64,000 nucleotides of DNA, from NCBI GenBank assembly GCA_963776225.1, contig CAVZLL010000002.1, positions 151,585 to 215,584 of the forward strand, written 5' to 3'. Below the pieces are notes generated by a model, which worked only from the letters and a program-made list of their open reading frames with translations, had not been told where the DNA came from and ran no database searches. The translations under genes were made by a program, and so were the position numbers. Positions 37,708-63,320 of this stretch are shown here, one piece after another (position 1 is the first letter of the stretch; each line of letters opens with the position of its first letter). Source of the stretch: an uncultured Acidimicrobiaceae bacterium. Its GTDB lineage: Bacteria > Actinomycetota > Acidimicrobiia > Acidimicrobiales > RAAP-2.

Positions 37708-37788
37708 CCTGGAACGCCTGGAACGCCTGGAACGCCTGGAACGCCTGGAACGCCTGGAACGCCTGGAACGCCTGGAACGCCTGGAACG
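37708..37788. repeat. perfect tandem repeat, 9 copies of 9 nt (CCTGGAACG)
   Basis: Counted directly in the sequence. It lies in the 349-nt divergent intergenic region between yciI (start 37586) and the YceI-like gene (start 37936). Confidence 0.95.
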
Positions 37789-37935
37789 GCACGGCGTGCT
37801 CGCAGTCCGCAGTCACGCCGCCCGAGCGGTCGGACCGGTTGGACCGCTCGATGATGATCCCCTGCTCTCCCTGGTCAGACATGGATGGCGGGGATATGGT
37901 CCAGGTGTACCCAGCGAGCGACACAGGAGGTTCAG

Positions 37936-38478: not shown

Positions 38479-38674
38479 CCCGTCACCTCACCCTCGGTCG
38501 GAACACCCTGTCCGTGGCTCCTCTCCACGGGAGATCCGCCCAAGGCGGTCTCCGACGCGGCGACCTCGTCCGCCGCGGGCACCGGACCGGCGAACCGGCT
38601 CCGCGGAGGCCCGAGAGCCGGTCGTCACGCTGGCCTCCCTGCTGGGTGGGCTGGCGCCCTGCAAGACTGCAGCG

Positions 38675-39559: not shown

Positions 39560-39562
39560 GGG

Positions 39563-40630: not shown

Positions 40631-40639
40631 ATGGTACGG

Positions 40640-42701: not shown

Positions 42702-42765
42702 CCGGCGCCACAGGGGAGCCGGACCGACGGGACGGAACCGGTGCGCCTCGTGACAGAATCGCCCC

Positions 42766-44304: not shown

Positions 44305-44322
44305 CGGCCGACGTGACGCCGG

Positions 44323-44610
44323 CTACCAGGCCGCGCTGAGCTCGACCAGGGAGTCGAGATACTCGCGACGTCGGCATGCCTGGACGGTCACCCCTTCCAT
44401 CGGTTCATCCGGCGCGATCCTGAGCGCAGGGCTGGAGTGGACACAGCAGGCCACCTGCCGTCTCTCGATGCTGAGCACTCTCACAGCACGCGGCGGGCAC
44501 CCGGTGCGGTCGCAGGACCCCGGTGCCAACGGTGGTACGTTCCTCCCGCTGCCGGGCCCGTTGTAGCAGAGGTTTCCGCCAACCGATGTTCCGGGTCCGG
44601 CGGCACTCAC
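44323..44610 (-). CDS. doubtful Cys-rich ORF (95 aa) downstream of the ABC-2 operon
   Basis: Only this ORF in the 480-nt gap has acceptable composition, and it has 6 Cys. There is no RBS, no family is recognised, and it may be non-coding. Confidence 0.2.
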   Translation of the reverse strand: MSAAGPGTSVGGNLCYNGPGSGRNVPPLAPGSCDRTGCPPRAVRVLSIERRQVACCVHSSPALRIAPDEPMEGVTVQACRRREYLDSLVELSAAW

Positions 44611-44790
44611 GCCGGACCGGGGGCGAAACGACGAACGGCCTGATACCGCCGTTCCGGAGGCGGCACCAGGCCTGTTCGGCGGGATCCCGCCAGCTTGGCA
44701 ACCATCATGGGCGACGATCCGTGCCGATGCAACACGTGTTGCGGAATCAGGTTGCCGGAACGCGTCCGGGTCGCCGTCCGCAGTGGGCGG

Positions 44791-45978: not shown

Positions 45979-46949
45979 TCCTCCCCCAGACGGCTGGTGA
46001 CCTGCAGGAACCAGGACTCGAGCGACGCGTGGATCTGTTGCAACCGGTAGACGGCGATCCCGCCCTCGACCAGCACCCGATTGACCTCCGCGATGAGCGA
46101 TCGCTCCGTGCCGTCGGGCAGCACGATGGCGAGCCCGAGCTGGGTGACCTCCGCTCGTGCTCCGACGGCCGTCCGCTCGAGGAGCTGGCGGGCCCGGTCC
46201 GGCTCCGAACACTCGATCTCGAGCGATGACGACGTTCCGGCGAGCAGCTCGGAGATGGGTCCCTGCCGGATGACCTTGCCCCGGTCGACGATGGCGACCG
46301 CGTCGCAGGTCCGCTCCACCTCGTCGAGCAGGTGCGAGGAGAGCACGACGGTACGGCCCTCCGCGACCAAGGCGAGGATCATGTCCCGCATGTCCTGCAT
46401 CCCGGCCGGGTCGAGACCGTTCATCGGCTCGTCCAGGATGAGCAGCTGGGGGTCACCGATCAGGCAGGCGGCGACCCCGAGGCGCTGGCGCATGCCCATC
46501 GAGTACTTGGACACCCGGTCGTCGGCGCGGTGCAGGATGCCGACCCGCTCGAGCGCGGGACCGATCCGCTGCTTCGCTTCGGGCTCGCGGGCGGCAGCCA
46601 GGATCTGGAGGTTCTGCCTCCCGCTCAGGTGACCGTGGAACCGCGGCTCGTCGACGATCGCACCGACCCGGGCCAGGGCCACGTCGCGATGCCTCGGGAC
46701 CGAATATCCGAGCAGGGACATCGTGCCGGCGTCGGCATGGGTGAGCCCGAGCAGCACGCGGATGAGAGTGGTCTTCCCCGCCCCGTTGGGACCGAGGTAG
46801 CCGAACGCCGAGCCCCGGGGGACCCGGAGCTCCACGCCGTCGACCGCGACGTTCTCCTTGAAGCGCTTGGTGAGCCCATGGGTCTCGACCGCCCAGTGGC
46901 TCTCCGCCGCCTGCCGCTCGGATCCGTCGGGGAGTGTCGTCGCGCTCAT
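45975..46949 (-). CDS. ABC transporter ATP-binding protein
   Basis: Walker A GPNGAGKTT, signature YSMGMRQR, and Walker B LLILDEP. Confidence 0.95.
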   Translation of the reverse strand: MSATTLPDGSERQAAESHWAVETHGLTKRFKENVAVDGVELRVPRGSAFGYLGPNGAGKTTLIRVLLGLTHADAGTMSLLGYSVPRHRDVALARVGAIVDEPRFHGHLSGRQNLQILAAAREPEAKQRIGPALERVGILHRADDRVSKYSMGMRQRLGVAACLIGDPQLLILDEPMNGLDPAGMQDMRDMILALVAEGRTVVLSSHLLDEVERTCDAVAIVDRGKVIRQGPISELLAGTSSSLEIECSEPDRARQLLERTAVGARAEVTQLGLAIVLPDGTERSLIAEVNRVLVEGGIAVYRLQQIHASLESWFLQVTSRLGEE

Positions 46950-47006
46950 CTGCCGCCCTCACCGTGCCACGGGGAAACCAAGAGCGGGTCGACTAGAATA
47001 CCGGGT

Positions 47007-47035
47007 ATAATATCCAGGTCCACACCCGCGGTCAA
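47007..47035 (-). promoter_or_regulatory. sigma-70-like promoter TTGACC-N17-TATTAT for the ABC-2 operon
   Basis: Minus strand reads cTTGACCgcgggtgtggacctggaTATTATacc. The -10 lies about 58 nt upstream of the ATG at 46949, in a locally AT-rich patch. Confidence 0.5.
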
Positions 47036-47154
47036 GACCCACGCGGGCAGGCTCGCATGCTACCGCCCGCATGGCCGAGCAGGAGGTCGCGGGCTCGAGG
47101 AACCGGGGCGGGTCGCAGACCGGTGGCGGACGACGGAACGGCCCGCTCGACCGA

Positions 47155-47886
47155 CTACGAGAAGCGGGACGGATCCCAGCGCACCAGCGACTCGAACCCG
47201 GCGGCCAGGAGAAGCCGCGACGGCGCGTCCCCCCAGATCCGGTCGACGAGGGGCGCCAAGCGCTCCGAGACCGCGGCCGGCTCGTCGTCCAGGTAGCAGA
47301 GCGCCACCCGGAGCTTGCCCTCGCTGAACAGGTGGTAGCGGAACGACGCGCTGGTCGCGAAGGTCCACACGCCGGCGACCCCGGGCACCGAGAGCAGCTC
47401 CGGGACGATCTCGACGTGGATCCGTTGCACGAACCGGTCCTGGTCCGTTGCGTCCGGTTCGTCCACGATGAGGTAGACGCCCCGGTGGGGGCGGAAGGGG
47501 ACCACCTCGGGCGAGACGAGGACCCGGGAAGCGGCATGGGCCTCGAGCAGCCGGAGTCCGCCACGGTACTGGGACGGCAGCGAGTACGGGAACCGCCCGA
47601 GGTCGGCGAGATGCCCTCCGAGCGCGAAGAAGTCGTCGACCGTCCGGCCGAGCGGGTCGCCCATCAGGTAGCAGACCACGTGCTCGACGAGCGACCAATC
47701 GTCGATCTCGGCCGCCCGGGTCGCCCGGCAGGCCGGCGTGGACGCCCACCGCTGCCCGAGCACGAGCCCCGGCAGCTGGTACTGCTCGGGCATGTGGTCC
47801 ATCTGGTGCCACTCGAGGTACGGCCCGTCGTCACCGGTCGCCGACCGGTGCGAGAGCGAGAAGAACCCCGCCTCGACCCGGTTCAC
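47155..47886 (-). CDS. hypothetical protein (243 aa), translationally coupled to the upstream LLM oxidoreductase
   Basis: This is the tail of ORF 47155..48762: VNRVEAGFFSLSH...YLEWHQMDHMPEQ.... Composition is normal and the GTG overlaps a TGA (GTGA). Confidence 0.6.
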   Translation of the reverse strand: MNRVEAGFFSLSHRSATGDDGPYLEWHQMDHMPEQYQLPGLVLGQRWASTPACRATRAAEIDDWSLVEHVVCYLMGDPLGRTVDDFFALGGHLADLGRFPYSLPSQYRGGLRLLEAHAASRVLVSPEVVPFRPHRGVYLIVDEPDATDQDRFVQRIHVEIVPELLSVPGVAGVWTFATSASFRYHLFSEGKLRVALCYLDDEPAAVSERLAPLVDRIWGDAPSRLLLAAGFESLVRWDPSRFS

Positions 47887-48863
47887 CGGGACCTCACGCC
47901 GACCTCGCCCCGACCCGGCGCATCGATCGCCGCCATCTCGCCCACCAGCTCGACCATCGCACCCAGCTGCTCGAGGTAGTGCGCGCGGGAGCGGTGGACG
48001 AACCCGAGCTGCAGGTCGGTCGCCCCGGCCCCGATCAGGCGGTCGACCACCTTCCTCGCACCGGCCGGGTCCGAGAGCGGGTCGAGCGGCCGGCCGTTGC
48101 GCAACACGACCTCGAGCGGTCTCGTCCGTGCCGCCCAGGCCGCCGTGGTCCTGGCGTGCTCGATCATGGCCGCGACGTCGGCGGCCCGGACCGCGAAGGG
48201 CACCCATCCGTCCCCGAGCTCGACCGCGCGTCGCAGGGAGCGGCCGGTGCGGCCGCCGATCCACAGCGGGACCGCGGACTGGCGGGCACAGGGGTCCACC
48301 ACCACGTCCGAATACCGGTAGAACGGTCCCTCGTAGCTCGGCCGGTTGGTCGAGAGCGACGCCCGCAGCGCCGACAGCGCGTCGTCGGCGCGGGCACCCC
48401 TGCCCTCGAAGTCGACGCCGAGCAGGTCGAACTCCTCCTCGAGCGACCCGACCCCGAGACCGAGGATCAGCCGGCCGGACGAGACCTGGTCGAGCGTGCC
48501 GTACCGCTTGGCGATCTCGAGCGGGTGGTGGTACGCGAGCACCAGGACATTGGTGGCCAGGCGGATCCTCGAGGTCACCGCGGCCAGGTACCCGAAGGTG
48601 GCGAGGGGATCCCAGTAGCGGCTCCCCCGCGTCGCGGCCACCCCGGTCGGGACCGCCACATGCTCGCTGCAGGTCAGATGGGAGTACCCGAGCGACTCGG
48701 CGGTCCGTGCGACGAGGGCGACGTCCCCGATGTCGCCCTCGACCTCCCAGGGTGCGTGCCATCCGGGAAGGAGGGTCAGCACCGGCGTCGTGATCCCCAA
48801 TCGGAGCGGGAGCCCGGCGCGTCCGGCTGCCGCCGGATTGTGGTGTTCGCCCTCGGCGACCAC
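47883..48863 (-). CDS. LLM-class F420-dependent oxidoreductase
   Basis: LRLGITTPV...GYSHLTCSEHV...LGLGVGSLEEEF...PLWIGGRTGRSLRRAVELGDGW. Confidence 0.85.
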   Translation of the reverse strand: MVAEGEHHNPAAAGRAGLPLRLGITTPVLTLLPGWHAPWEVEGDIGDVALVARTAESLGYSHLTCSEHVAVPTGVAATRGSRYWDPLATFGYLAAVTSRIRLATNVLVLAYHHPLEIAKRYGTLDQVSSGRLILGLGVGSLEEEFDLLGVDFEGRGARADDALSALRASLSTNRPSYEGPFYRYSDVVVDPCARQSAVPLWIGGRTGRSLRRAVELGDGWVPFAVRAADVAAMIEHARTTAAWAARTRPLEVVLRNGRPLDPLSDPAGARKVVDRLIGAGATDLQLGFVHRSRAHYLEQLGAMVELVGEMAAIDAPGRGEVGVRSR

Positions 48864-48973
48864 GGTCCCTCCTTCGGGTGGTCGGCGGTCCCTCCTCCGG
48901 GTGGTCCGCTCGATCGGGACGAAGCTATCACCGGACGCCTCCCCGCCCCGGGGCCTGCACTACGGTGACGTCG

Positions 48974-50539
48974 ATGTCGGACTACGACGCAATCGTGATC
49001 GGTGCCGGCCACAACGGTCTCACCGCGGCGGCGGTGATGGCGCGGGGCGGGATGCGGGTCCTCTGCCTGGAGAAGAACCACTTCATCGGGGGCATGGCGA
49101 CGACCACCGAACTGACCCGGGGCTACCGCTTCGAGCTGGCCGGATCGATCCAGTTCCCCATCCCACGCGAGATCTTCGACGAGCTGGACCTTGCGTCCTG
49201 CCCCATCTACGAGCCCGAGGTGCAGTCCGCCAGCATCGGTGCACCCGGCAAACCCCCGATCCTCCTCTACAGCGACCCCGAGCGGCTCCTCGAGCACCTC
49301 AACGAGACGCTCGGGCTCGAGGCGGTCCTCGGTATGGCCGAGGTCGCGGCCTGGGCGGAGGCACCGGCACGGGCCATCGGACGGTTCGAGGTGCGCAGGC
49401 CGCCGCGTTCGCTCGACGAGATGTGGGCGTGCGCCGCCAACGAGAAGGAACGGGAGGCGATCCGCACCGCGATGTTCGGCAGCGTGATGGACGTGGTCGA
49501 CCGCTACCTCCCGGATCGGGAGAAGCACGCCCAGGTCCGCAGCATGCTGGCGTTCCTGTCGGTCAACTCGACCTATCGCGGTCCGTACTCCGCGGGCAGC
49601 GCGCTCTGCCTGGCCTTCGCGCTGGCCTCGACCGGCGACGCGACCATGTCCAAGGTCCGGGGCGGGATCGGGACGATCTCCGATCACCTGCGAGGACTGT
49701 TCGAACAGCACGGCGGCGAGCTCCGCCGCCACGTGAAGGTCGCCGAGATCCGCCTCGACGCCGGACGGGTCACCGGGGTCGCGCTGTCCGACGGCGAGGT
49801 GGCGACTGCGCCGGTGGTGGTGTCCAACCTCGACCCGACGGCCACCTTCACCCAGCTGCTCGACCGGGACGGGCTGCCGGACGCCTTCGTCCGGCGGATC
49901 GACGCCATCGACCACCGGGCCGCCTACTTCCAGATCCACTTCGCACTCGACGGCCTCCCCGAGTACGCGGGGCGGTACCAGAGCCTCAACGAGGGTGACC
50001 TCCGCCACAACGTGACCTTCTTCGGAACCGCCGAGCAGATGCAGCTCGACTTCGAGGGATGCGTCCGCGGTCTGGTGCCGCAGTCCCCTTCGTTCAACCT
50101 CTCGGTGCCCTCCCTCCGCGACAAGGAGCTGGCCCCCCCGGGCAAGCACGTCGCGAGCTGTTTCGGCTTCTACGCCCCGATCGGTGCCACCCACGCCCGG
50201 CAGGCGGCGTTGCGCGACGAGATGGCCGGCCGCATCGTGGAGAAGATCACCGAGGCCGCGCCCAACTTCCCCGATGTGGTCGAGCGCCAGTTCAACTATC
50301 CCGCCTACGCCTACGAGCGGATGTTCGGGTGCACCGGCGGCGACTTCACCCACGGGCTCCTGCAACCGGAGTTCATGGGCCCGTTCCGGCCCGGCCCGCG
50401 CGGCTGGCCCGACAACCCGGTGCCGATCGGTGGCCTGTATCTCTGCGGCGCGGGCTGCCACGGCGGTCCCGGAGTCACCTTCATCCCCGGATACAACTGT
50501 GGGCACGCCGTGCTCGACGAGGCCGGCGCCCGGTCGTAG
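48974..50539 (+). CDS. phytoene-desaturase-family NAD(P)/FAD-dependent oxidoreductase
   Basis: MSDYDAIVIGAGHNGLTAAAVMARGGMRVLCLEKNHFIGG. The C-terminus GLYLCGAGCHGGPGV is typical of CrtI-like enzymes. Confidence 0.85.
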   Translation: MSDYDAIVIGAGHNGLTAAAVMARGGMRVLCLEKNHFIGGMATTTELTRGYRFELAGSIQFPIPREIFDELDLASCPIYEPEVQSASIGAPGKPPILLYSDPERLLEHLNETLGLEAVLGMAEVAAWAEAPARAIGRFEVRRPPRSLDEMWACAANEKEREAIRTAMFGSVMDVVDRYLPDREKHAQVRSMLAFLSVNSTYRGPYSAGSALCLAFALASTGDATMSKVRGGIGTISDHLRGLFEQHGGELRRHVKVAEIRLDAGRVTGVALSDGEVATAPVVVSNLDPTATFTQLLDRDGLPDAFVRRIDAIDHRAAYFQIHFALDGLPEYAGRYQSLNEGDLRHNVTFFGTAEQMQLDFEGCVRGLVPQSPSFNLSVPSLRDKELAPPGKHVASCFGFYAPIGATHARQAALRDEMAGRIVEKITEAAPNFPDVVERQFNYPAYAYERMFGCTGGDFTHGLLQPEFMGPFRPGPRGWPDNPVPIGGLYLCGAGCHGGPGVTFIPGYNCGHAVLDEAGARS

Positions 50540-50606: not shown

Positions 50607-51248
50607 GTGGTCAACCCTGCACCCGGCCCGGCCGGGATCCCGGCCGACACCACGACTCCGACCCCGGCGCCCCCAGCGGGACTGACCGGCGAACGCGTCT
50701 GGTGGGCGGCGGCCGGCATCGCCGGGATCGCGCTCCTCGGGTTCGTCGGCTTCATCGTCTCCCGTCCCCACCACCCGACGCCGGTCGCCGCTCCGGTGAC
50801 GCCGGTCACCACCCTTGCCGTGGGCAGCGTCGCCCCGGGATTCGCCCTGCCCCGCCTCGGCGGCGGTCCGCCGGTCTCGCTGGTCGCGAGCGCCGGGACA
50901 CCGACCGTGGTCAACTTCTTCGCCTCCTGGTGCCACGACTGCCAGAGCGAGCTCGCCAACGTCGCCACGCTGGCCCACCGGACCGCCGGCAGCGTGGACG
51001 TGATCGGGGTCGACTCCAACGACGCGCAAGGATCCGCCGCCCGGGTCCTGCTGGCCGGTGCCGGTGCCGACTACCCGGTCGGCGTCGACAGCCGGGCCGC
51101 GGTCGCCACCGCCTACCGGCTCGCCGCCCTGCCGGTGACCTTCTTCCTCGACCGCCGGGACCGGGTCGTGCACGTCGCGCTGGGCAGCCAGACCCTCGCC
51201 TCCCTCACCCACTGGGCCGGCGTCCTCGCCGCGGGAGGTACCCGGTGA
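50607..51248 (+). CDS. TlpA/ResA-like thiol-disulfide oxidoreductase, membrane anchored
   Basis: TM anchor WWAAAGIAGIALLGFVGFIV and thioredoxin-fold CxxC FFASWCHDCQSE. GTG start is inferred. Confidence 0.8.
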   Translation: MVNPAPGPAGIPADTTTPTPAPPAGLTGERVWWAAAGIAGIALLGFVGFIVSRPHHPTPVAAPVTPVTTLAVGSVAPGFALPRLGGGPPVSLVASAGTPTVVNFFASWCHDCQSELANVATLAHRTAGSVDVIGVDSNDAQGSAARVLLAGAGADYPVGVDSRAAVATAYRLAALPVTFFLDRRDRVVHVALGSQTLASLTHWAGVLAAGGTR

Positions 51249-52141
51249 CACCGGACCCCGCCGACACGACCCGGCCTCCGCCGCGCCTGAGCACCGAGGA
51301 ACGCGCCGCCGCCTTCGCAACCGGCCTGGCTCCATCGGACCGGGCCGCCGCGCTCCGGACCGGGCGCACACCGGTCCCCCGCCGCCTGGTGGTCTGGATC
51401 GCCGTCGGGTTCGCGGTGCTCGCCGGGGGCGGGATCGTCCTCGACCACTTCTTCGGCGACGCGGGCAACGCGGCGACCTCGTTCCCGACCACCACCCTGG
51501 TCGGGACCGGGGCGCCCCCGGTCCCGGCTCCGCCGCCGGTCCCGCCGATCAGCGCCCCGCTCGGTGCGTTCCTCGGACTCAAGCAGCTGGGCGGCCGCAC
51601 CGCACCCCCCATCACGCTCGAGACACCCGACGGGTCGCGGTGGCAGCTCACCGATGCCCTCGGCAAGGTGGTCGTGGTGACCTTCTTCGACACCGGGTGC
51701 ACCGACATCTGTCCGGTGCTTGGTCGTGAGATCGTGCGCGCGGTGGCGCTGCTCGGAAACGGCGCCCCCGACGTCGAATTCGCGGTGGTCAACGCCGACC
51801 CCACCGAGACGGCGGTCGACCCCGCCCCGGCGGCCCTCACCGAGACCGGGCTCGACCGCCTCGCCAGCGTCCACTTCCTCACCGGGCCGCTCGACACCCT
51901 CGACTCGGTGTGGACCGCCTACGGCGTCGCCGTCAACGTCGGACGGGACCGGTTCCAGCAGTCCCACAACGACATCCTCTACTTCGTCGACCCACGGGGG
52001 CGCCTCCGGGCCGAGGCCACCCCGTTCGCCGACGAAGGACCGAACGGGTCCTACACCCTCGCCGCTGCGGACGTCGACCGGTTCGCCGAGGGGATCGCCC
52101 AGACGGCCGCACACCTCACCCGCACCGGTGCCTCCTCCTGA
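51245..52141 (+). CDS. SCO1/SenC-family copper chaperone
   Basis: TM anchor, FFDTGCTDICP (CxxxCP), and a downstream His in QQSHNDILYFVDP. The GTG overlaps the TlpA TGA. Confidence 0.85.
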   Translation: MTPDPADTTRPPPRLSTEERAAAFATGLAPSDRAAALRTGRTPVPRRLVVWIAVGFAVLAGGGIVLDHFFGDAGNAATSFPTTTLVGTGAPPVPAPPPVPPISAPLGAFLGLKQLGGRTAPPITLETPDGSRWQLTDALGKVVVVTFFDTGCTDICPVLGREIVRAVALLGNGAPDVEFAVVNADPTETAVDPAPAALTETGLDRLASVHFLTGPLDTLDSVWTAYGVAVNVGRDRFQQSHNDILYFVDPRGRLRAEATPFADEGPNGSYTLAAADVDRFAEGIAQTAAHLTRTGASS

Positions 52142-52818
52142 TGGACGACGATACGGACCTACCCCGTCCCTACGATCCGGCGAGCATGCCGGCCTCGTCG
52201 CTCGCCCGGACCAGATCGGTCTGGTACCGACGGCCCTGGGTCCTCGTCTCCGCGGCGATCGTGGTCGTGGTGGGTGCCTCCATCCTCGTGGACCTCCCAC
52301 GGCAGGTGAGCACGTCGGACGATGTGGCCAGCCAGACCGCCTCGCTGGTCGAGATCAACCAGGACGTCAGCCCGTGCAAGTTTGCGGTCCAGGAGACCTT
52401 CGCCATCTACGGGGACCTGCGGAGCGGGACGCTGAGCACCGCCGATCGGGCCCAGGCCCCGACGATGCTCCGCGACGACCAGTCGGCCTGCTCCTTCACC
52501 AACAGCGCGATCTTCGACCTGACCAACGACATCCAGATCCAGGACACGGCTGCGGGCAAGGACATCGACCACATGCTCAGCGTCGTCACCATCTGGGTGA
52601 CCTCGGACGCCCTGGCCGCAGTGGAGGACATCCAGACCCTCTACGGGAATCCGGGGAACCGGGCCGCCGCCCTCGACCTCGCCGCGCAGGAGCGGCTGCT
52701 GGCCACGGACCGGGGCGAGGCGGTCAGCGACGTGCAGGCCGCGGACGTCCTGCTCGGCGGGGCCCATCTCCCGATGCCCAACCTGCCGATCCTGCCCCTA
52801 GCGGGCAGCAGCGCCTGA
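52141..52818 (+). CDS. hypothetical membrane-anchored protein
   Basis: The ATG overlaps the Sco TGA (TGATG). There is one TM segment (WVLVSAAIVVVVGASILV) and a 170-aa extracytoplasmic domain with two Cys. Confidence 0.6.
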   Translation: MDDDTDLPRPYDPASMPASSLARTRSVWYRRPWVLVSAAIVVVVGASILVDLPRQVSTSDDVASQTASLVEINQDVSPCKFAVQETFAIYGDLRSGTLSTADRAQAPTMLRDDQSACSFTNSAIFDLTNDIQIQDTAAGKDIDHMLSVVTIWVTSDALAAVEDIQTLYGNPGNRAAALDLAAQERLLATDRGEAVSDVQAADVLLGGAHLPMPNLPILPLAGSSA

Positions 52819-53784
52819 GTCCCGACCCTTTGGGCCGGCGCCGGGCTCGACCGGCCGGCCCCGGGTGCGCTCCTGACGCACCAGACGGAACAGCTCGTCG
52901 TCGGGATCCTCCTCCGACTGCAGCCAGCGGACCAGGTTCCAGAAGACGACCGGGACGAAGGCACAGCCCGACACCACCCACAAGAGCCCCGACGTGAGCT
53001 GCTGGTCCGCCGAGACGCTCAGGCCCTGGCCGGCGACGTGGTCGTATCCCGTGTACCAGGCACCGTGGGAAAGGCCGACCAGGTAGGCGGTTATCCAGAT
53101 GACCCACATGGCCACCGCGGCCAGAGCCACCCGCTGGGGACGCGAGAGGCGGGGTCGGAGCGGGGGCGACTCGATGAGCTCGAGCCACAGGGCGGTCTCG
53201 ACCGCCACCAGGGTGGCCGCCTCGACCCCGACCAGCCACGGATGGCCGGGCAGGGCATCGACCGTGAGCGGGATGCGCCACAGGATCGTGCCGCCCACCC
53301 CGAGGGCGGCAAACGCCCCGGCTCGCCACGGCTCCGGGTGGCGCCTGCGGCCGAGCGCAAGCCGGTCCACCGGGCGCAGAGATGCGGTCGACACGAGGAC
53401 CACGTCCTCCTCCGCCTCCGGCAGCCCGGCACCGGCCAACCCGAGCAGCCGCCAGGGAGCCCCCGCGACCAGCAGGGCCGGGACCACCACGGCGAGGAGG
53501 GAGAACTGGAGCGCCTCGACCACCTCGTAGCGACGGGCGGACGTCGCCAGCGGCGGTGCCAGGCAGAGCACGAAGAGCACCAGTGCACCGATTGCGAGAC
53601 TGTGCCGGAGCGTGGCGACTCCGTCAGGGGACCGCGCGTCGGCGGTCCCCGGTGTCACCGGGACGAGCGGCGCTGGAAGAAGCCCCAGAGGAGGACCGCG
53701 AACAAGCGTGCCCAACGGGATCGCGAGGGTCAGGACCTCAGGTCCGATGTAGCTGTCTGCGCCGATACTCACAGGCCGACCCAC
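52798..53784 (-). CDS. CtaG-like (caa3-type) cytochrome c oxidase assembly factor, polytopic membrane protein
   Basis: Roughly 7 TM segments with a pattern like the paralogue at 58523..59485 (VVPALLVAGAPWRLL; SADQQLTSGLLWVVSG). It sits directly downstream of ctaE. The start is uncertain. Confidence 0.65.
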   Translation of the reverse strand: MGRPVSIGADSYIGPEVLTLAIPLGTLVRGPPLGLLPAPLVPVTPGTADARSPDGVATLRHSLAIGALVLFVLCLAPPLATSARRYEVVEALQFSLLAVVVPALLVAGAPWRLLGLAGAGLPEAEEDVVLVSTASLRPVDRLALGRRRHPEPWRAGAFAALGVGGTILWRIPLTVDALPGHPWLVGVEAATLVAVETALWLELIESPPLRPRLSRPQRVALAAVAMWVIWITAYLVGLSHGAWYTGYDHVAGQGLSVSADQQLTSGLLWVVSGCAFVPVVFWNLVRWLQSEEDPDDELFRLVRQERTRGRPVEPGAGPKGRDSGAAAR

Positions 53785-53842: not shown

Positions 53843-53862
53843 CAGATCAGATCAGATCAGAT
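53843..53862. repeat. pentanucleotide microsatellite (CAGAT)4 spanning the ctaE stop codon
   Basis: Counted directly in the sequence. On the coding strand (ATCTG)4 supplies TGA in all three frames. Confidence 0.85.
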
Positions 53863-54513
53863 AGAACATCACCCAGAAGAGGGTGCTGCCCACCGCCACG
53901 AAGCCCCAGAAGTACGTGCAGGCGGAGACGTTCGCCCGGAAGATCTGGGCCGACGGCGACATGGTCAGCTGGGGAGGACCGTCCTCCGACGGTTCCCGAC
54001 GCAGCCGGATGGAGCGGGCCAGCACGGTTTCGAGCCAGTAGGTCGCGCCGCCGCACCATCATGATGTTGACGACGGCCCATCCGATGAAACAGGAGGCGT
54101 ACCCACTCGATCCGGGGAAGAAGGGCAGCTGGGTCAGCTGCCAGATCTGCAGCCCGATCGCCACCAGGCCACCGAGCACCGCCGTCCAGCCGGCGACCTC
54201 CCAGTCGATCACCAAGCCCGTTGCGCATCCGCCACTGCCCGTAGATGGCGAGGACCGCCGAGGCGAGGACCATGAAGTAGATGGCCCAGCCGATGCTGGT
54301 CGGCGCGGTGATGTTCGCCGGGCGCCAGAGCTGACCGTTGTTGCTCGAGCGCAGGTAGAAGTAGGCGAAGGCCTCGGACGCCAGGACGAAGGTGAACATG
54401 CCGATGAACAGCCGCCCGCCGGTCCAGTAGGAGCCGACGGCGGCCCGCAGCTCGAACTCTCTCTCCTCGGGGGTGTCCGAGTAGCGCGGTGTCTGTCTGG
54501 CGATGTCGGTCAC
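53852..54513 (-). pseudogene. ctaE: cytochrome c oxidase subunit III, two frame switches
   Basis: The gene is split across ORF 53965..54513 (MTDIARQT...FIGMFTFVLASEAFAYFYLRS...), ORF 53847..54215 (DWEVAGWTAVLGGLVAIGLQIWQL...) and a third frame (own translation ...YWLETVLARSIRLRREPSE...YFWGFVAVGSTLFWVMFYLI*). Breaks fall near 54210 and 54050. Confidence 0.75.
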
Positions 54514-54534
54514 GGGGTCGACTCCATCTGATCG

Positions 54535-56556
54535 TCAGGGGGTGCCCGGGGTCGGCGGCGGGTCGGCGGGTGGGTCATTCCCGGTGATGCCCCCGGTCGG
54601 AGCCGACGGGGCAACGGCTCCCACCAGGACCGGCTCACCGAGGTCGGCGACGGCGGGGGCGCCCACCTCGCTGTAGTGGTAGGGGTCGGTGAGCACGACC
54701 GGGATCCGCTCGAAGTTGTAGTAGGGCACCGGGTTGGCAGTCTGCCACTCGAGGCCCAGCGAGTCCCACGGGTTGGCCGGTGACGGCGTCGGCTTGAGGA
54801 AGATCGACCAGACGAAGTTGGCGATGAAGAAGAGGAACGAGGCACCCAGGATGAAGGCGCTGACCGAGGAGAAGTCGTTGAGCGCCTGCAGGTTCGCCTG
54901 GTACTCGAAGACCCGCCGGGGCTGGCCGAGCAGGCCGATCACGAACATCGGGAAGAAGGTCAGGTTGAAGAAGATGAACATGAACCAGAAGTGGAGCTGG
55001 CCGAGCCTCTTGTTCATGGTCTTGCCGGTCATCTTGGGGAGCCAGAAGTAGAGACCCCCGAAGAAGGCGAAGATGAGGCCGCCCATGATCGTGTAGTGGA
55101 AGTGGGAGAGCACGAAGAACCCGCCGTGCACGGTCACGTTGACCGGCACGTCGGAGAGGAACACGCCGGTCACCCCGCCGATCAGGAAGTTGAAGAACAC
55201 CGCCAGGGCGAACAGCATCGGCACCTCGAAGCGGATCTTGGACTTGTAGAGCGTCCCCATGCCGACCAGGAAGATGAACCCGGTCGGGATCGAGATGAGC
55301 TCGGTGGTGAGCATGAAGAGCGGCCGCATGTCCGGGTTGATCCCGCTCTGGAACAGATGGTGCTGCCAGACGAAGAACGAGAGCAGCGCCACACCGAGCA
55401 TGCCGGCGGCGGCCACCTTGTAGGCGAACAGCGGCTTGCGGGTGAACACCGGGAGGATCTCGACGACGATCCCGAACCCGGGCAGGGCCATGATGTACAC
55501 CTCCGGATGGCCGAAGAACCAGAACAGGTTCTCCCAGAGGTACGAGCTGCCCCCGTGCTCGGTCACGTAGAAGGCGGTCTGGGCGGTGTGGTCGAGGATG
55601 CCGAAGAGGCGCGGCCATGAACAGGGTGGGGGTGGCCAGGGTCAGCAGGGCGCAGGTCGACAGGATCGCCCAGACGAAGATGGGAACCCGGCTCCAGGTC
55701 ATGCCCGGTGCCCGGTAGTTGATGATGGTCACCGCCAGGTTGAAGCCGGCGGCCATCATCCCGAGGCCGATCAGGGCGAATCCGACCAGGTAGGAGATCA
55801 TGCCCCCGCCGGCCTGGGTCTGCAGCGGCGCGTACCCGGTCCAGCCGGTCGGGAAGCCACCGTAGGGCAGGGCGGTGAGGATGACCAGGTAGCCGGCGCT
55901 GAAGACCCAGAAGCTGAACGCCTCGACGCGGGGGAAGGCGGTGCGCCTCGCCCCGATCATGAGCGGGTATCAGCCAGTTCCCGAGCGGTCCGACGACGAC
56001 CGAGGTGGCCATCATCATCATCATCGTGCCGTGCTCGCTCACGATCGCGATGTAGGTCCCGGGACCGAAGACGTGGCTGGTCGGGGTCAGCAGCTCGGTG
56101 CGGATGGCCATGGCCAGCAGTCCGCCGGTGAAGAAGAAGATCAGCACGCCGATCACGTACTGCATGCCCACCACCTTGTGGTCGGCGGTGTAGCGGAAGT
56201 ACCTGGTCCAACTGGTCGACTCGTACTCCGGCGCGGGCTCCATGCCGACCATCTTGGCGAGCGGGTAGTTGAGCGGCACCGATGCCGATCAGCCATCCCA
56301 GCGCACCGAGGACGAGGCCCCCGGCGTTGGCGGTGCTGTTGACGCCGGTGTTGGCGACGTTGGTGTACCCGCTGGCCACGACGTTGCCCAGCCAGTGGCC
56401 GAGCAGGTACCCGAGCACCGCCCCGATGATGGCGGTGCCGAGGTGCTGGCTCAGCCAGCCCGGGCGGGCGGGGAGCCCCTGGAACCCCCCGGCGGCCGAT
56501 GGGGGCGTGGGGTCCGGGTAGGTGACCTCGAGGTCTCGGTCGGCACTGATGGTCAT
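54535..56556 (-). pseudogene. ctaD: cytochrome c oxidase subunit I with about 95-aa N-terminal extension, three frame switches
   Basis: Four pieces were identified: MTISADRD...GALGWLIGIG (frame of ORF 55957..58152, GGAGG RBS); PLNYPLAKMVGMEPAPEY...GNWLIP (ORF 55563..56279); MIGARRTAFPRVEAFSFW... (ORF 54635..55960); ...WFFGHPEVYI...VWQHHLF... (ORF 54535..55566). Breaks fall near 56280, 55965 and 55612. Confidence 0.9.
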
Positions 56557-57606
56557 TGGGCGACCTCCACCCTTCCTCTGCCTGGCGGAGCCATGGGTGC
56601 CGGGCCGGGTCTCACGATGCGGGCTGCTTCGCGCCGTAGACCTCGCGTCGGGCTGTACGGATCGACGTTGTCCGGGTAGTACCCGCCGTCGGCCCCGTTG
56701 GCGTCCGGGGATGTAGGTCCAGGCGAACGGGGGCAGGAGCTTGGTGTTGGCTGACGTTGGCCGTCTCGGTCGACGTGGCCCACGACTCGAAGGCGCGCCT
56801 TCGAGACCACCTGGCCGTAGTTGAACATCGCGCCGTGCCAGAGGCCGCAGAGCTCGCTGCACCGGACGGTCACGCTCCCGGTGTGGTTGGTGGTGGTGTA
56901 GGCCACGTTGTCGACCTGGGGGTTGGCGTCGGCCTTGATGCTCAGCTGGTACGCCCAGAAGCTGTGGATCACGTCGAGCGAGGTGACGTGGAAGGCGATG
57001 GTGGTGTCGACCGGCAGCATCAGGTCCTGGGTCTCGAAGCCGCCGAAGCTCGGGTACCGGTAGGTGAACTTCCACTGCTGGGCGATCACCTGCACGGTCA
57101 GGATGTTCGCCGACGTCGGCGTCCAGATCGGATTGGGCCCCTCGCCCGCCGCCCGATCCGGTGTTGGTGATGAGCTCGACCGTCCCGAAGACGAACAGGC
57201 CGATCACGATGACCGAGGTGGTGACGATCCAGCCGACCTGCACCCCGAAGTGGCCGCGGGCCTCCTCACCACCGACCGGCTCCGGAAGACCCTCACGGGT
57301 CGAACGCCAGGTGACCAACGAGTACCCGAGGTAGACCCAGACCGCGATGAGCACGGGGAGGGCGATCACCAACAGGACGTTGAAGTCGAACTGGTTCTCC
57401 TCGGCGGTCGAGGTCATCGTGCCCGGCGGCACGTGCGGACCGACCAGGAAGTAGAAGAGCGGATCGGTGATCGCCGAGAGGACCAGCCAGATGGTCACCA
57501 TCCGGAGCATGTGGCGGGGCTGGCCGGCCGGTGCCCCGGGAGGACCCGGGGATCCTTGCGCCCCTGGAGCGTCGGGTTCCTCCGACTGCGGGGCGTCGAC
57601 GGTCAC
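56553..57606 (-). pseudogene. ctaC: cytochrome c oxidase subunit II, about four frame switches
   Basis: The N-terminal TM hairpin is in the frame of ORF 55957..58152. The CuA domain HSFWAYQL...RCSELCGLWHGAMF is in ORF 56553..57095. The C-terminal FESWATSTETANV / ANTKLLPPFAWTYIP / DANGADGGYYPDN lies in three frames. Breaks fall near 57145, 56790, 56755 and 56705. The ATGA overlap links it to ctaD. Confidence 0.85.
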
Positions 57607-58285
57607 GAGACCACGTCCAGGAATCCGCCCATGTACCCGACCGTGCTCATCGGTCCGCCGTTGCCGTACAGGAAGCCGAGACCGCAGGGCACGAAGCACT
57701 GCCACGGGTACTCGCCCGGCACCGGGCGTCATGATCGAGAACTTGAGGATGTTGTGCACGTTGCCACTTTCCCCGCAGGGCGCAGTGCTGCACACGTTGG
57801 TCGCGTTGGGGTCGACCCCGACCAGCGGCACGTTGACCCCGAGGGTGGGGATGGCGAACGTGTGGCCGACCCCGTTCGTGCTGTTGGAGTCGTAGACCGA
57901 GAAGGTGCTTGCCGTTGAGCTCGGCCGTGTGCCCGATGGTCCCCTGCACCTGTCCCCACTGCTGGTTACGGAGCGGGCTCCCGCTGTCGAATTGCTCGAT
58001 CGTGAAGTTGATCCGGGTGTGGGCCGGCACCTTCCAGGTGGTCGTGTGGATCCACTGGCCCGCCGGGTTCTCGACCAGATAGGAGACCCAGGTGGGGTGG
58101 GGGCCGAAGCCGATGCTCCCCACGGTCTGCAGGGTGATGTCGACCGGCGCACCCGCCGGCTGGGCCGAGGTGAAGTCGACGACGGCGGGCTGCGGGGTCA
58201 GATAGGTCACCACCGCGTAGACCACCAGTGCGACGGCCACCGCGAGGAGGCCGACGAACGTGGCGATCCTTCCTCCGTACGACAT
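57603..58285 (-). pseudogene. membrane-anchored cupredoxin-like protein upstream of ctaC, two frame switches
   Basis: MSYGGRIATFVGLLAVAVALVVYAVV... is in ORF 57647..58327. STFSVYDSNSTNGVGHTFAIPTLGVNVPL... is in the frame of ORF 55957..58152. Own translation of the third frame gives EYPWQCFVPCGLGFLYGNGGPMSTVGYMGGFLDVVS*. There is an AGGAG RBS, and the TGA overlaps the ctaC GTG. Confidence 0.65.
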
Positions 58286-58522: not shown

Positions 58523-59485
58523 TCAGCGGCTGCCCCCGGCCCGTGCCCTGGCGGCCTGGAACGCCTCGGCCGACGGCACCGGACCCCGCCCGCCGAGCCG
58601 GTCGATCACCGTGCTCCACGAGCCGTCCTGGTCGATGATCCGCCTGAACACCACGATCAGCGCGGGGATCGCCCAGAAGTCACCGCACACCCACAGGATT
58701 GCCGCCCCGATCTGCTGGTCGGCGAACGGGGGCAGGGTGACGCCGGGGACGTTCGCGTAGCCCGGGTACCAGCTGGCCGCGCTGAAGATGCTCAACGCCA
58801 TGGCCAGGACGAACATCACCATGTTGGTGGAGATGATGGCCCCCGCCTGCCAGATCGGGCTCGCCTTCGGGCGCATCGGGTGGGAGGGGATGATCTGGAG
58901 CCAGAACAGGACCCCGGTGACGAAGAAACTGCCGTGCATGAGCCAGATGTGGACGGTCTGGTTCTGCTCGGCGAGGTCGAAGAGCGCCGGCACGTGCCAG
59001 GCCACCATCACCACATTGAAGGAGACCAGCGCGAACCAGGGGTTCAGCACCACCCGGCCGAATGTCCGGAACACCGACGACCAGGCGCCGAGGATCAGGA
59101 ACCGGCCGACCCTGCGCCTGAGCCCGACCGGGAGGGCGAACAGCAGCGGGATCCAGGGGGCCCCGGCCACGATGAGGATGGGAGCGTAGAAGGCGATGAG
59201 CAGGTGCTCGATCATGTGCACGAAGAAGTAGTCGCCCGCCCAGTAGTCGATGGGTGATTCGACCGCGATGAGCAGGACGCCCAGTCCCGCGTAGAAGGCC
59301 AGCGAGCGGAGCCGGCGCTGCCTGGTGCGTGCAGCGACCGAGCGGGTTCGCAGCCGTGCCAGGCCGACCTCGTTGGCGACCACGAGGACGGAAACCACCA
59401 CCAGGAACGGATCGAACGACCAGTCGTCGATGAGGTAGTGCACGACGGAACTCCAGTGCCCCCGTCTGCGAGGTGGGTGGTCCAA
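58523..59485 (-). CDS. ctaG: CtaG (caa3-type) cytochrome c oxidase assembly factor
   Basis: FFVHMIEHLLIAFYAPILIVAGAPWIPLL ... WHVPALFDLAEQN ... FADQQIGAAILWVCGDFW, with about 7 TM segments. Confidence 0.8.
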   Translation of the reverse strand: MDHPPRRRGHWSSVVHYLIDDWSFDPFLVVVSVLVVANEVGLARLRTRSVAARTRQRRLRSLAFYAGLGVLLIAVESPIDYWAGDYFFVHMIEHLLIAFYAPILIVAGAPWIPLLFALPVGLRRRVGRFLILGAWSSVFRTFGRVVLNPWFALVSFNVVMVAWHVPALFDLAEQNQTVHIWLMHGSFFVTGVLFWLQIIPSHPMRPKASPIWQAGAIISTNMVMFVLAMALSIFSAASWYPGYANVPGVTLPPFADQQIGAAILWVCGDFWAIPALIVVFRRIIDQDGSWSTVIDRLGGRGPVPSAEAFQAARARAGGSR

Positions 59486-59500
59486 CCCTATCCCGGTCGG

Positions 59501-60772
59501 TCAGCCGGAGCTGCCGTACTGGATGGGCACGTCGACGCTGGCTCGGTGCAGCCAGCGGCCCCCGACCAGCGCGTCGACGTCGAGTGTGGAACCGGAAGAC
59601 GAGAGTGCCTCGAACTGCCCGCCTGGCTCCGCCACCACCAGGCCGGTCGACCACGGCAGCCGGGGCAGCGTCCGCCAGACCGAACCGGGCGAGGTCACCG
59701 AGGCGGTCGCTGCACCCCGACCACCGGCCAGCACCACCACCATCCCCCCGGTCGGGGTCAGCGACGTCGAGACGACGGAGTGGCCGCCGGTTGCGAGGGA
59801 TGCCGAGATCGACCAGGGGGCAGCACCGTCGGGACCGGAGACCAGCACCAGGCGGGCCGTCGGTCCCGTGCCCGAACCGACCAGCGCGGTGAGCACTCCG
59901 GCCGTGTCCACCAGCCGCTCGACACGGACCGGGACGTCCCGGGCCGGAAGATGCGGTCCGACCGGCCGGCCGGCCGCTCCTTCCAGGCGGTAGATGGGGA
60001 CCGCCGTCCCCGTCGCGCACGCGCCCCCGGCGTACCGCTGCTCCGGGTAGCCAGGACCGGGCCCGGCAAGGGCCACCCCGGTCAGCGCGGTGAGGGCGCA
60101 CCCGGTGGACCTCGTCGCCGTCGCCAGCGCCCGTTCCGTGACCACCGTCGTCCAGGTGTCGAGGTCGCCGGTCGAGGACACCACCTCGCCCCCGCCACCG
60201 GTGAGCACGGCCAACCGCGAGGTCGGTCCTGACGCCGCCAACGCGTCGGGACCCTGGGCCAGGCTGCCCGGCAGCACTCCGGTCGACCAGGTCGATGCCC
60301 GGTCACTGGTCTCGGTCACCGGGGAGAAGTGCAGGTCGAGGGAGGTCCCGAACCCGACGAAGAGCGCCCCGTCGGGGTTGGGGGCGGTGATCAGTCCACC
60401 GTTGGTGGCCACCCCCGGCGGGGTGGCCAGGACCCACTCTCCGCCTGGCGGACAGCCGGCGCCGGCCGTACACGATCCGGTGCGGTCGAACAGCTGCCAG
60501 AACGTGTCGACGGGGTTGCCGAGCTGGCCCATGGCCAACGTTGCCCAGGTGCCCGCCGGGCCGGAGAACGCCTGCGGCAGCGGGAGAATGCCCGTCCCGC
60601 CCGCGTCGACCGCAGCATCAGCGGACCCGTCGGCTCCCGAGGTGGGAGCGGACGGGGAGCACCCGGCAACGGCAGCCGCCAGCACCACGACGCCCGCCAC
60701 GACGGCGACCGGCAACCGGGAGCGGCTCCTCCGCCGGCCCCCTGCGAGGCCCCCGCGGCCGGTGAACCTCAC
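59501..60772 (-). CDS. secreted lipoprotein of unknown function (Gly/Thr/Ser-rich, beta-rich)
   Basis: The GTG overlaps the upstream TGA (GTGA). Signal peptide with lipobox is LPVAVVAGVVVLAAAVAGCS. Confidence 0.7.
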   Translation of the reverse strand: MRFTGRGGLAGGRRRSRSRLPVAVVAGVVVLAAAVAGCSPSAPTSGADGSADAAVDAGGTGILPLPQAFSGPAGTWATLAMGQLGNPVDTFWQLFDRTGSCTAGAGCPPGGEWVLATPPGVATNGGLITAPNPDGALFVGFGTSLDLHFSPVTETSDRASTWSTGVLPGSLAQGPDALAASGPTSRLAVLTGGGGEVVSSTGDLDTWTTVVTERALATATRSTGCALTALTGVALAGPGPGYPEQRYAGGACATGTAVPIYRLEGAAGRPVGPHLPARDVPVRVERLVDTAGVLTALVGSGTGPTARLVLVSGPDGAAPWSISASLATGGHSVVSTSLTPTGGMVVVLAGGRGAATASVTSPGSVWRTLPRLPWSTGLVVAEPGGQFEALSSSGSTLDVDALVGGRWLHRASVDVPIQYGSSG

Positions 60773-62622
60773 GAGTTGGCGACGTGCTGGACCTGCGCCG
60801 CGAGCAGCGTGGAGAACGACGAGTGAAGTGCCGTGGCCCCCTGGCCCCCCGGGTCGGAGTTCATCACGACCCGCAGATGGCCGGTGCGGTCGATCACGCA
60901 CAGCAGGTCGGAATGCGCGACCATCGCGCCGCCGGGCGCGACGGCGGTCTGGAGACCGTAGCTGTTCCACGTGTTCTCGAGTTGGGGGAGCGGTCCGGTC
61001 AGGTAGTGCCAGTTGGGGAGCTGGTCGAGTCCCTCCTGCCGGGTGAAGGCCATGGTGACCGCCGTCGACCGGTAGAGCGGGTTGGCGTTGACGGCAACCA
61101 GCTCAACGCTGGCGGCATCGCTTCCGAGCATCTGGTCGGTGATCCGCAGCTCCTGGGCGATCAGCGGGCAGTCCGTGGTGCAGACCGGGTCGAGGAAGGT
61201 GAGCACGACGGTGTGACCGGCCAGACCGGCCAGGCTCACCGTTCGGCCGTTCTGGTCGGTGAAGGAGAACGCCGGAGCCGGCGAGTCGACGTAGTCGGGT
61301 GTGCCGTCGGCGGCCTCGGTGAGGATCGGGTCGGCGTTGGGATTGGTGGCGGCCAGCGCCATCGGTGTCGCTCCGACCAGCACGATGCCGACCGCACAGA
61401 TCGCGGCCAGGCTCCGGAGCAGGTAGGAGGGGCTCAGGCGGTCGAGCCAACCGGTCGGTCCGTCCGCTGCATCGACGGTCTCGGCCGCCGGTGCGGCGAC
61501 GGGCGCGGTGGCACGCACCGGCAGGCGCACCATGGCCAGGTACCCGGCGGAGAAGAACAGGGCCATCGGGATCATCGAGTTGGGATCCGTGCCGACCCCT
61601 CCGAAGAACCCGAAGTCCTCGACGAGCACCCAATCGGCGAGGCAGACCACGATTCCCGCCGCCACCCCCATCCGGGCAGGTCCTCGACGGCCGGTCAGCA
61701 TGAGAGCCCCGATCGCGGCGAGCAGCACCACGACGACCAGGTTGACCCCCCACCCGTGGGCGGCGTCGAACGACCCGAAGTCGCGCGCCCAGGATGCGGT
61801 CAGCGACGGCTGCGAGAGCGCTGCCATCTGGCGCTCCATCGCGGTGAGCGTCCCGGCCGTGCCGACCGGGTGGGGCTGTCCGGTCCAGAATCCCCGACCC
61901 GGCCAGGCCTGGAGGAGCGCCATCCCGAGGAAGTAGAGGCCGGTCACCCGGAGCACGGCCTTGCCGAGACGGGGTGTCTCCCAGGCCGGATCGGCCAACG
62001 CGACGAGAAGGCCCGCGGCGACGTAGAACACCGCCGCGCCCGGTGCCCCGAAGAGCCAGCTGCTGCCCTGCCCGAAGATCCCCCCGAATGCCTCCCCGAA
62101 GACCCAGACGATGAGGCCCCACCCGGCGCTCACCAGGCCGGCGGTCCGCGACCAGCGGCCCCGCGGCGCGACCAGGAGGAAGACGCCGATCCCCACCTGG
62201 ATCCACACCGTGGCGGCCGCTGCGGGCACCGGATGGTTGTTCCAGATGGTGACGCCGGAGTTGACCAGGTGCTGGACCCACCCGGGTGAGGAGGAGGCCG
62301 CTGGGGTGATCACCTGACCGGTGAGCCCGAGGGGCATCGAGCCCTGGGTCTGGAGGATGCCGTCGAAGATCCAGATGACCCCGAAGGAGATCCGGAGGAG
62401 CCGGCGGGCGGCCGGCTCCGGATATGGCCAGGGAACGGACGACGGAACGCCGAGCGTCCCTGCGGTGACCGCCCGCCGGAAGCGGAGGGTGCGGATCGTG
62501 TTCCAGACGATGGCGAGAAGGGTCGCGAGCAGGAGCACCACGATGAGCTGATGGTCCAATGCCGAGCGGAAGGCGGCGCCGACAGCGGGGTCGTTGGTCG
62601 GCACCCCGTGCCCCATGTTCAT
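60769..62622 (-). CDS. fusion protein: about 430-aa polytopic membrane domain + C-terminal SCO1/SenC domain
   Basis: About 10 hydrophobic segments are followed by VVLTFLDPVCTTDCP (CxxxCP) and MVAHSDLLCVID (conserved His). The start is at the internal ATG (MNMGHG). Confidence 0.8.
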   Translation of the reverse strand: MNMGHGVPTNDPAVGAAFRSALDHQLIVVLLLATLLAIVWNTIRTLRFRRAVTAGTLGVPSSVPWPYPEPAARRLLRISFGVIWIFDGILQTQGSMPLGLTGQVITPAASSSPGWVQHLVNSGVTIWNNHPVPAAAATVWIQVGIGVFLLVAPRGRWSRTAGLVSAGWGLIVWVFGEAFGGIFGQGSSWLFGAPGAAVFYVAAGLLVALADPAWETPRLGKAVLRVTGLYFLGMALLQAWPGRGFWTGQPHPVGTAGTLTAMERQMAALSQPSLTASWARDFGSFDAAHGWGVNLVVVVLLAAIGALMLTGRRGPARMGVAAGIVVCLADWVLVEDFGFFGGVGTDPNSMIPMALFFSAGYLAMVRLPVRATAPVAAPAAETVDAADGPTGWLDRLSPSYLLRSLAAICAVGIVLVGATPMALAATNPNADPILTEAADGTPDYVDSPAPAFSFTDQNGRTVSLAGLAGHTVVLTFLDPVCTTDCPLIAQELRITDQMLGSDAASVELVAVNANPLYRSTAVTMAFTRQEGLDQLPNWHYLTGPLPQLENTWNSYGLQTAVAPGGAMVAHSDLLCVIDRTGHLRVVMNSDPGGQGATALHSSFSTLLAAQVQHVANS

Positions 62623-62828
62623 CGAGCTACCACGCTTCCCTCTGACTTCCGGGTGGTCCGGATCCTCTGGAGGGCCGACATCCCGGACCGGCGCCCGCCC
62701 GGTGCCGGTGTCCGCGTCGGCGACCCTGGACGGCCCACTGTAGATCCCGGACGGAGGCGTCCCCAAGGCAGCCCCCGTCGGCGCGACCCGCGGCTGACGA
62801 CGCTGGAGCCGCGTCCGGCGCCCACCGG

Positions 62829-63320
62829 TCAGCCCGGAGCACCCCCTGGGGCAGGTCCGGTTCCGTGCGGGGCTCGACGACCGGATTCGGCCACCGCGTC
62901 CTGCTCCGCCTGCGCGGCGAGGAGCTCCCGCCGGTGGGCCTCCCATGCATCGAGCATCCCGGCGTACTCGGGGGCCACGGCGGGTCGGGTCGCACGGGAA
63001 CGGGCGGCCGAGCGCCGGGTGGAGCGGCCCCCGTGGAGCACGTTCCACCACATGTAGACGGCGAACACGGCGAACAGCGGCCACTCGAAGACGTAGGCCC
63101 AGCTCAGTGAATTGCCCCCGAGGGCCCGGCCGAGCTCGAACCAGAATGCCGTGATGCAGAGGGCGAGGCCCAACAAGAGGGTGATGTGGACCCTGACGGC
63201 TTCCGGCCCGCGGAGGCGAAGGAGTCCGACCTCGGCACCCTCGCCGTGGCCGACGGAATACGTCGAGTCGTCCGATCCGGCCGGCCCGGCGGCGGGCTCG
63301 GGGACCTGGGGACCATCCAC
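62829..63320 (-). CDS. small membrane protein, unknown function
   Basis: Two TM segments (ITLLLGLALCITAFWF, WPLFAVFAVYMWWNVL) and a charged tail. The start is uncertain. Confidence 0.5.
   Translation of the reverse strand: MDGPQVPEPAAGPAGSDDSTYSVGHGEGAEVGLLRLRGPEAVRVHITLLLGLALCITAFWFELGRALGGNSLSWAYVFEWPLFAVFAVYMWWNVLHGGRSTRRSAARSRATRPAVAPEYAGMLDAWEAHRRELLAAQAEQDAVAESGRRAPHGTGPAPGGAPG

Follow-up and report, generated by a model that had tools for sequence, protein, structure and literature searches.

Genes of the oxidase operon and their frame breaks

The window analysed here, a stretch of 64,000 nucleotides from an uncultured Acidimicrobiaceae bacterium, corresponds to C2:151,585-215,584, that is, to part of contig C2 in a genome of 3.84 Mb which is assembled into 4 contigs, has about 70% G+C and an estimated completeness of 91.6%. 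On the minus strand, from position 58285 down to 53852, it carries a cupredoxin-like gene followed by ctaC, ctaD and a subunit-III-like ctaE of a haem-copper oxidase, and the reading frame of each of these four genes is interrupted. An earlier note on this DNA had listed 11 breaks and had offered two explanations, a recent inactivation of the oxidase or a locally mis-polished part of the assembly. The nearest public loci are found in uncultured Acidimicrobiaceae/Acidimicrobiales metagenome-assembled genomes (MAGs), many of them from one Nanopore long-read soil project.

To detect the breaks, the intact proteins of L003, a relative assembled from short reads, were used as tblastn queries, and the DNA was aligned by MAFFT with that of 10 relatives. 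In this alignment they resolved into 12 single-base insertions and no frame-breaking deletion, with two insertions in the cupredoxin gene, five in ctaC, three in ctaD and two in ctaE, none of which was found in any of the 10 aligned relatives. All 11 breaks listed before were recovered within about 10 nucleotides; the total rose to 12 by the addition of one in ctaC, at about 56646.

The cupredoxin-like gene (57603..58285, minus strand, as are all the genes and extra bases of the operon) lies upstream of ctaC, and the intact L003 homologue matches it successively in frames 3, 1 and 2. One of its two extra bases, at 57906, has its best placement at the A of c[A]c and does not stand in a homopolymer; the placement of the other, at 57720..57721, is ambiguous over 2 nucleotides. 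Skipping 57906 and 57720 gives a protein of 226 amino acids which can be aligned with its relatives, and for which no Pfam match at E≤0.001 was found. The ctaC gene (56612..57705), encoding the CuA subunit (COX2), is matched by tblastn in frames 1, 2, 3 and onwards, and its start is placed with uncertainty at a GTG at 57705 by homology with L003. The extra bases of ctaC are located at 57144..57148 (about 57147, with ambiguous placement within CGGGC), at 56796..56799, at 56754 (the T in g[T]c, not in a homopolymer), at 56705..56710 (about 56706, with ambiguous placement within CCCCGG) and at 56646. The last of these, the one absent from the previous list, was placed by the MAFFT alignment and the restored stop, and it was counted because it is required for the conserved ctaC C-terminus EVYGAKQPAS*. 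In ctaD (54535..56556, COX1) the insertions at 56274..56276, 55964..55968 and 55611 (the C in g[C]g, not in a homopolymer) leave four pieces, with tblastn frames running 1, 2, 3 and 1, and a search of the genome recovered this gene as three separate COX1 pieces. The ctaE-like subunit III gene (53852..54513; tblastn frames 1, 2 and 3) has its extra bases at 54220 and 54050..54052. For at least four of the operon insertions, c[A]c, g[T]c, g[C]g and aa[C]ggg, a position within a homopolymer can be ruled out.

When the 12 bases were skipped, for the analysis only, each of the four genes read through to its natural stop without an internal one and gave a full-length protein. The read-through CtaC and CtaD proteins match Pfam COX2 (PF00116, E=8e-14) and COX1 (PF00115, E=2e-124), respectively, and the read-through CtaE is 74-76% identical to proteins named 'oxidase subunit 3' by JGI. 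The hallmark motifs reported previously, CSELCGLWHGAM (CuA) in ctaC, WFFGHPEVYI and QHHLF, are all present.

The flanking genes are uninterrupted and were matched to families, in agreement with the earlier description. The patch of breaks is bordered on its low side by a CtaG-type assembly factor (52798..53784, minus strand; an open reading frame (ORF) of 328 amino acids matching Pfam Caa3_CtaG over profile positions 15-236 of 237) and on its high side by another (58523..59485, minus strand; a 320-amino-acid ORF, Caa3_CtaG E=1e-47), both intact. Further out are a Sco1/SenC fusion (60769-63084), a second Sco1 protein (50702-52141) and an ORF of 489 amino acids (59501-60970).

Two observations on the layout of the operon are added here. 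The CtaD of this oxidase type has an N-terminal extension of about 100 residues before the COX1 domain, which starts at residue 129 (window positions 56556-56270), and both this extension and the Pfam-less cupredoxin-like gene (58285-57603) are common to dozens of Acidimicrobiales loci. In-frame length differences from the relatives occur at 57558-57584 (27 nucleotides, in the N-terminal linker of ctaC) and at 54572-54612 (about 41 nucleotides, in the C-terminal tail of CtaD), and they look like ordinary variation of low-complexity Pro/Gly-rich sequence, not like errors.

Constraint on the oxidase proteins and other oxidases in the genome

The read-through proteins of all four genes were aligned with 62-78 intact relatives, and none of the four was an outlier. 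All 62-78 relatives agree at 24+55+221+19 = 319 columns, and at none of these was a private change found, so that nothing points to relaxed constraint. The mixed mutational spectrum expected of a pseudogene was not seen, the operon having 12 insertions, 0 deletions and 0 stops, and neither was a restriction to dispensable functions, in that murC and the only qcrCAB set found beside the second oxidase genes are broken as well. A recently inactivated oxidase, as considered in the earlier note, is at odds with the absence of deletions, of nonsense codons and of private changes at the 319 invariant residues.

The check for other oxidases which had been recommended was run on the whole genome, and it returned an intact second ctaC-ctaD-ctaF set (C2:65,999-69,118) with a ctaE (C2:74,107-74,702), both uninterrupted, and a full-length match to cytochrome bd subunit I (C3:725,523-726,836).

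Patches of frame breaks across the genome

The four contigs were scanned with a seven-state Viterbi frame model, whose codon model was trained on the genome's own long ORFs, and a same-strand frame switch more than 24 nucleotides before an in-frame stop was taken as a candidate. The scan gave 424 frame-switch candidates genome-wide, or 0.11/kb, in a strongly over-dispersed distribution, and 19 clusters with 4 or more events each, 0.6-6 kb long, among which is the oxidase patch. The detector picks up 8 of the 12 oxidase events, and these 8 in 4.4 kb compare with about 0.5 predicted from the genome-wide rate (Poisson P ~5e-8); the clustering is thus non-random, as had been proposed. The claim that the breaks are confined to the structural genes of the oxidase holds locally, but 18 further patches of the same kind lie elsewhere in the genome. 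The stretches at 40.6-42.7 and 0.2-1.4 kb of the window, with which the note had compared the oxidase patch as mis-polished sequence, are both flagged by the frame scan; this comparison is further borne out by the 19 patches, which include essential genes.

Insertion-like events make up 85% of the events in clusters of at least 5 and 45% of the singletons, a share that would be expected if many of the singletons are false positives. The genes broken by the other patches include cytochrome b/qcrB (7 shifts), QcrC/QcrA (3), MurC (4), glutamate synthase GltB (5) and a GH92 hydrolase (5), as well as an OYE-type reductase, an ArsA-like ATPase and an ABC transporter. The events occur, then, across the assembly whatever the function of the gene, with indispensable genes included.

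The densest patch, C2:70686-76123, covers qcrB, qcrC/A and neighbouring helicase genes, in which alignment shows 15 one-base insertions, 1 one-base deletion and 1 two-base deletion, and it directly adjoins the intact second ctaC-ctaD-ctaF set and the intact ctaE. A few clusters, among them C2:330388-331481 and window positions 986-1326, are deletion-like (-1), and one of these is at the very end of contig C2. The presence of deletion-like clusters alongside insertion-like ones implies at least two error regimes in the assembly.

Spectrum of the inserted bases

For six other patches, alignment with orthologous sequence from the three closest relatives in the genus showed 66 one-base insertions and 3 one-base deletions that are private to this genome, which brings the operon and the six patches together to 78 insertions versus 3 deletions. 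The bases inserted at the 66 sites were C (25), G (18), A (12) and T (11). A neighbour of the same base was present at 15 of the 66 insertions, compared with 31.8 expected under random placement (simulation, P<2e-4); replication slippage and the classical homopolymer error would both give the reverse of this depletion. Bacterial indel spectra are deletion-biased and slippage-prone. The insertions were distributed over the three codon slots as 21/25/26 (chi-square p=0.75), and this even use suggests that the insertion process is blind to the reading frame. The events are accordingly frame-blind, and they are accompanied neither by internal stops after read-through nor by private changes at invariant columns.

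Unpolished raw single-read sequence was considered as a source and is unlikely, as it would give comparable numbers of deletions (78:3 observed).

Dependence on sequencing technology

The same Viterbi detector was applied to the loci of relatives, grouped by source. It returned 0.019 candidates/kb for short-read MAG loci (578 kb scanned), 0.014/kb for JGI/ENA metagenome contigs (625 kb) and 0.11/kb, 70% of them insertion-like, for 30 Nanopore MAG loci (390 kb), beside the 0.11/kb of the genome under study (3.84 Mb). The candidate density of the latter is therefore 6-8 times that of short-read loci (0.014-0.019/kb) and equal to that of Nanopore-only MAG loci. In this operon itself, frame changes were seen by tblastn in 6 of 30 long-read loci and in none of the 50 loci from other MAGs (Fisher p=0.002); of 80 metagenome contigs, 2 had such a change, with one event each. 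The long-read locus L058 (3950-6969) has five ctaC/ctaD shifts by tblastn, all of them +1 and at positions unlike those described here. The frequency of the breaks follows sequencing and assembly technology, not lineage, with the platform of the studied genome itself being deduced.

Two other long-read MAGs of the family thus have clusters of breaks of their own in or around the same operon, for which the frame scan gave 8 candidates in L058 and 9 in L001. The pipeline behind the long-read MAGs of the closest relatives is Nanopore-only, with Flye --meta and one round of Medaka, and its authors note coverage-linked errors (PMC12313526); in earlier work by the same group a coverage of about 40x was required for a near-finished R10.4 consensus (PMC9262707).

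Among the proteins, genomes and metagenomes searched, no independent sequence of the same population was close enough to act as a second sequencing. The read-through CtaD had a best identity of 91% in a protein search, with the inspected cluster members at 89-91% at most, a scan of JGI/ENA metagenome contigs reached a best identity of 90-94%, and the intact CtaG had no exact match.

Conservation and ancestry of the patch

Conservation within the locus peaks in the oxidase patch, where best identities to family relatives are 80-93%, as against 70-80% over most of the flanking sequence; the CtaG gene at 58.5-59.5 kb, although well conserved too (80-86%), is clean. For eight patch segments the best identities to genus relatives were 86, none, 76, 83, 90, 82, 89 and 88%, and for eight random coding controls 86, 84, 73, 68, 89, 81, 94 and 79%. 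Unusually wide conservation was found in only about half of the patches. The idea that conserved genes draw cross-mapped reads from relatives gained no clear support, the identities of patches and random controls being similar. Two alleles written side by side at synonymous polymorphic sites were rejected as a general mechanism, as some insertions are optimally placed inside codons, the codon slots are evenly used and the neighbouring columns are not more variable; an adjacent transition partner of the inserted base was weakly enriched (31 vs 25 expected, P=0.07).

The locus also shows a phylogenetic discordance. Over most of the contig the closest genus genomes are G015, G006 and G007, which are colinear with it at 80-87% nucleotide identity (36000-50500 and 58600-62700), whereas between 50800 and 58300, that is, over the left-hand Sco/CtaG genes and the four oxidase genes, these three fall to 70-80% and the closest genomes are G005, G004, G016, G009, G008, G017 and G018, with 84-87% in ctaD. 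This discordant block exceeds the frameshift patch in size, and it could be due to allelic replacement or horizontal transfer of the oxidase operon within the genus, or to divergence of the G015 clade. A chimera of the whole contig was ruled out by the colinearity with the nearest relative, G015, over 36 kb to 62.7 kb.

Origin of the frame breaks

Taken together, we consider it very probable that the 12 breaks are a local consensus artefact of long-read metagenome assembly and not mutations of the organism. The four oxidase genes are most likely intact in the organism, and we infer that the extra bases lack read support. According to this explanation, the consensus would carry about 19 patches of 0.6-6 kb, with about one spurious inserted base per 200-550 bp, and the oxidase operon would fall in one of these patches, whose edges would lie between two CtaG genes by chance. 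The patchiness, we suspect, may come from local dips in usable coverage or from mixed reads during polishing.

The indel errors of Nanopore-only assemblies, known as the problem addressed by the IDEEL test, likewise consist of single-base indels which fragment conserved genes (Sereika et al. 2022, PMC9262707; the MFD long-read MAG catalogue, PMC12313526), and the Nanopore MAG loci of the relatives have the same density as this genome, 0.11/kb, whereas the short-read assemblies of the operon are without such breaks. The quality of such assemblies is described as coverage-dependent (PMC9262707, PMC12313526). The literature on Nanopore errors stresses homopolymer indels; here, by contrast, nearly pure insertions (78:3), depleted in homopolymers, are found in kb-scale patches. 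Several points weigh against an assembly artefact. The patchiness is explained by neither of the two mechanisms tested, side-by-side alleles and the attraction of reads by conserved genes. The absence of the insertions from the organism's DNA is reached indirectly, the best CtaD match anywhere being 91%. The genome probably comes from a Nanopore-only pipeline of the Flye and Medaka type, but its platform is deduced from the contiguity in 4 contigs and from the error density. Moreover, a nearly pure insertion spectrum is not the usual description of raw Nanopore reads.

The breaks do stand in the deposited sequence, the patch matches the extent of the four structural genes and leaves the adjoining assembly genes clean, and the second intact ctaC-ctaD-ctaF set with ctaE and the cytochrome bd subunit I gene would make a loss tolerable; all this would suit a real and very recent inactivation, in which a burst of single-base insertions cost the population this alternative haem-copper oxidase and left it to rely on its other oxidases. 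Genuine pseudogene decay of operons, for example during reductive evolution in Mycobacterium leprae, leaves multiple frameshifts in recognisable genes, and the operon described here is alike in this respect. It differs in having no deletions, stop codons or excess of substitutions, in that essential genes are equally affected and in that the phenomenon depends on the sequencing platform. Twelve insertions without a deletion, a nonsense codon or a private change at 319 residues are unlike neutral decay, homopolymers are avoided and codon positions hit evenly, and MurC, cytochrome b, QcrC/A and GltB are broken by identical patches; given the patches in MurC and in the bc1 complex, it is implausible that a viable cell has lost all of these genes. 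We therefore regard an inactivation as very unlikely. Hardly more credible, and if anything a little less so, are real localised bursts of non-slippage +1 insertions, caused for instance by an insertion-prone repair polymerase on kb-long tracts, a mutational process of which we know no description in bacteria; if true, such bursts would just have disabled the alternative haem-copper oxidase, the bc1 complex and other genes in a soil Acidimicrobiaceae population. Programmed +1 frameshifting, known from prfB-type sites and, at multiple sites, from some mitochondrial cox1 genes, resembles the present case in that all shifts are +1 and that an oxidase subunit I gene is among those affected. Real extra bases could then be bypassed by the ribosome, by quadruplet decoding or by transcript editing, and the perfectly conserved read-through products of the operon, with its uniform +1 shifts, would be as predicted. 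However, no conserved slippery or rare-codon context and no shared sequence context was present among the 12 operon sites and the 66 others, all four bases are inserted, and the codon slots are evenly used. The shift sites are conserved in 0 of the 10 aligned relatives and the +1 shifts of L058 are at other positions, and the events lie in kb-scale patches, neither genome-wide nor gene-specific, and short-read assemblies of this operon do not have them. With neither an in-frame CGGN nor a shared motif at the sites, recoding by quadruplets (CGGN-type) or driven by a motif was rejected. The probability of recoding is, in our judgement, close to nil.

A specific form of the artefact would arise if the assembler or polisher had merged the reads of two co-occurring strains or species in conserved genes into a mixed-population consensus with both alleles written side by side. 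Adjacent different alleles predict few neighbours of the same base, as was observed (15/66 vs 31.8 expected), no other part of the locus is as conserved as the oxidase patch (80-93% vs 70-80% in most flanks), and between 50.8 and 58.3 kb the nearest clade differs from that of the rest of the contig. Such merging should, on the other hand, prefer third codon positions, which was not the case (21/25/26); variable columns stand beside the insertions at 46% compared with 41% expected (p=0.31), and the inserted base equals a relative's base at the neighbouring column in only 11 of 80 cases. The eight patch and eight control segments are similar in their best identity to genus relatives, and the conserved CtaG at 58.5-59.5 kb (80-86%) is clean, so that a mixed-population origin appears unlikely, with some small chance left to it. 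A consensus artefact of long-read assembly remains the explanation that we favour.

Implications for the genome and for its respiration

In terms of data quality, a catalogue genome which represents its species carries, by our estimate, about 350 spurious frame breaks, concentrated in patches. Such breaks lead to the mis-annotation of pseudogenes, to lower completeness estimates and to false stories of a 'loss of respiration'. Their signature (insertion-only, homopolymer-depleted, codon-even and patchy) is unlike the usual picture of homopolymer deletions, and it may aid the development of tools for frameshift-aware annotation and polishing.

With regard to physiology, the oxidase is to be regarded as intact, and the breaks support no physiological conclusion. 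Even if they were real, the genome would keep the second ctaC-ctaD-ctaF set, ctaE and the cytochrome bd subunit I match.

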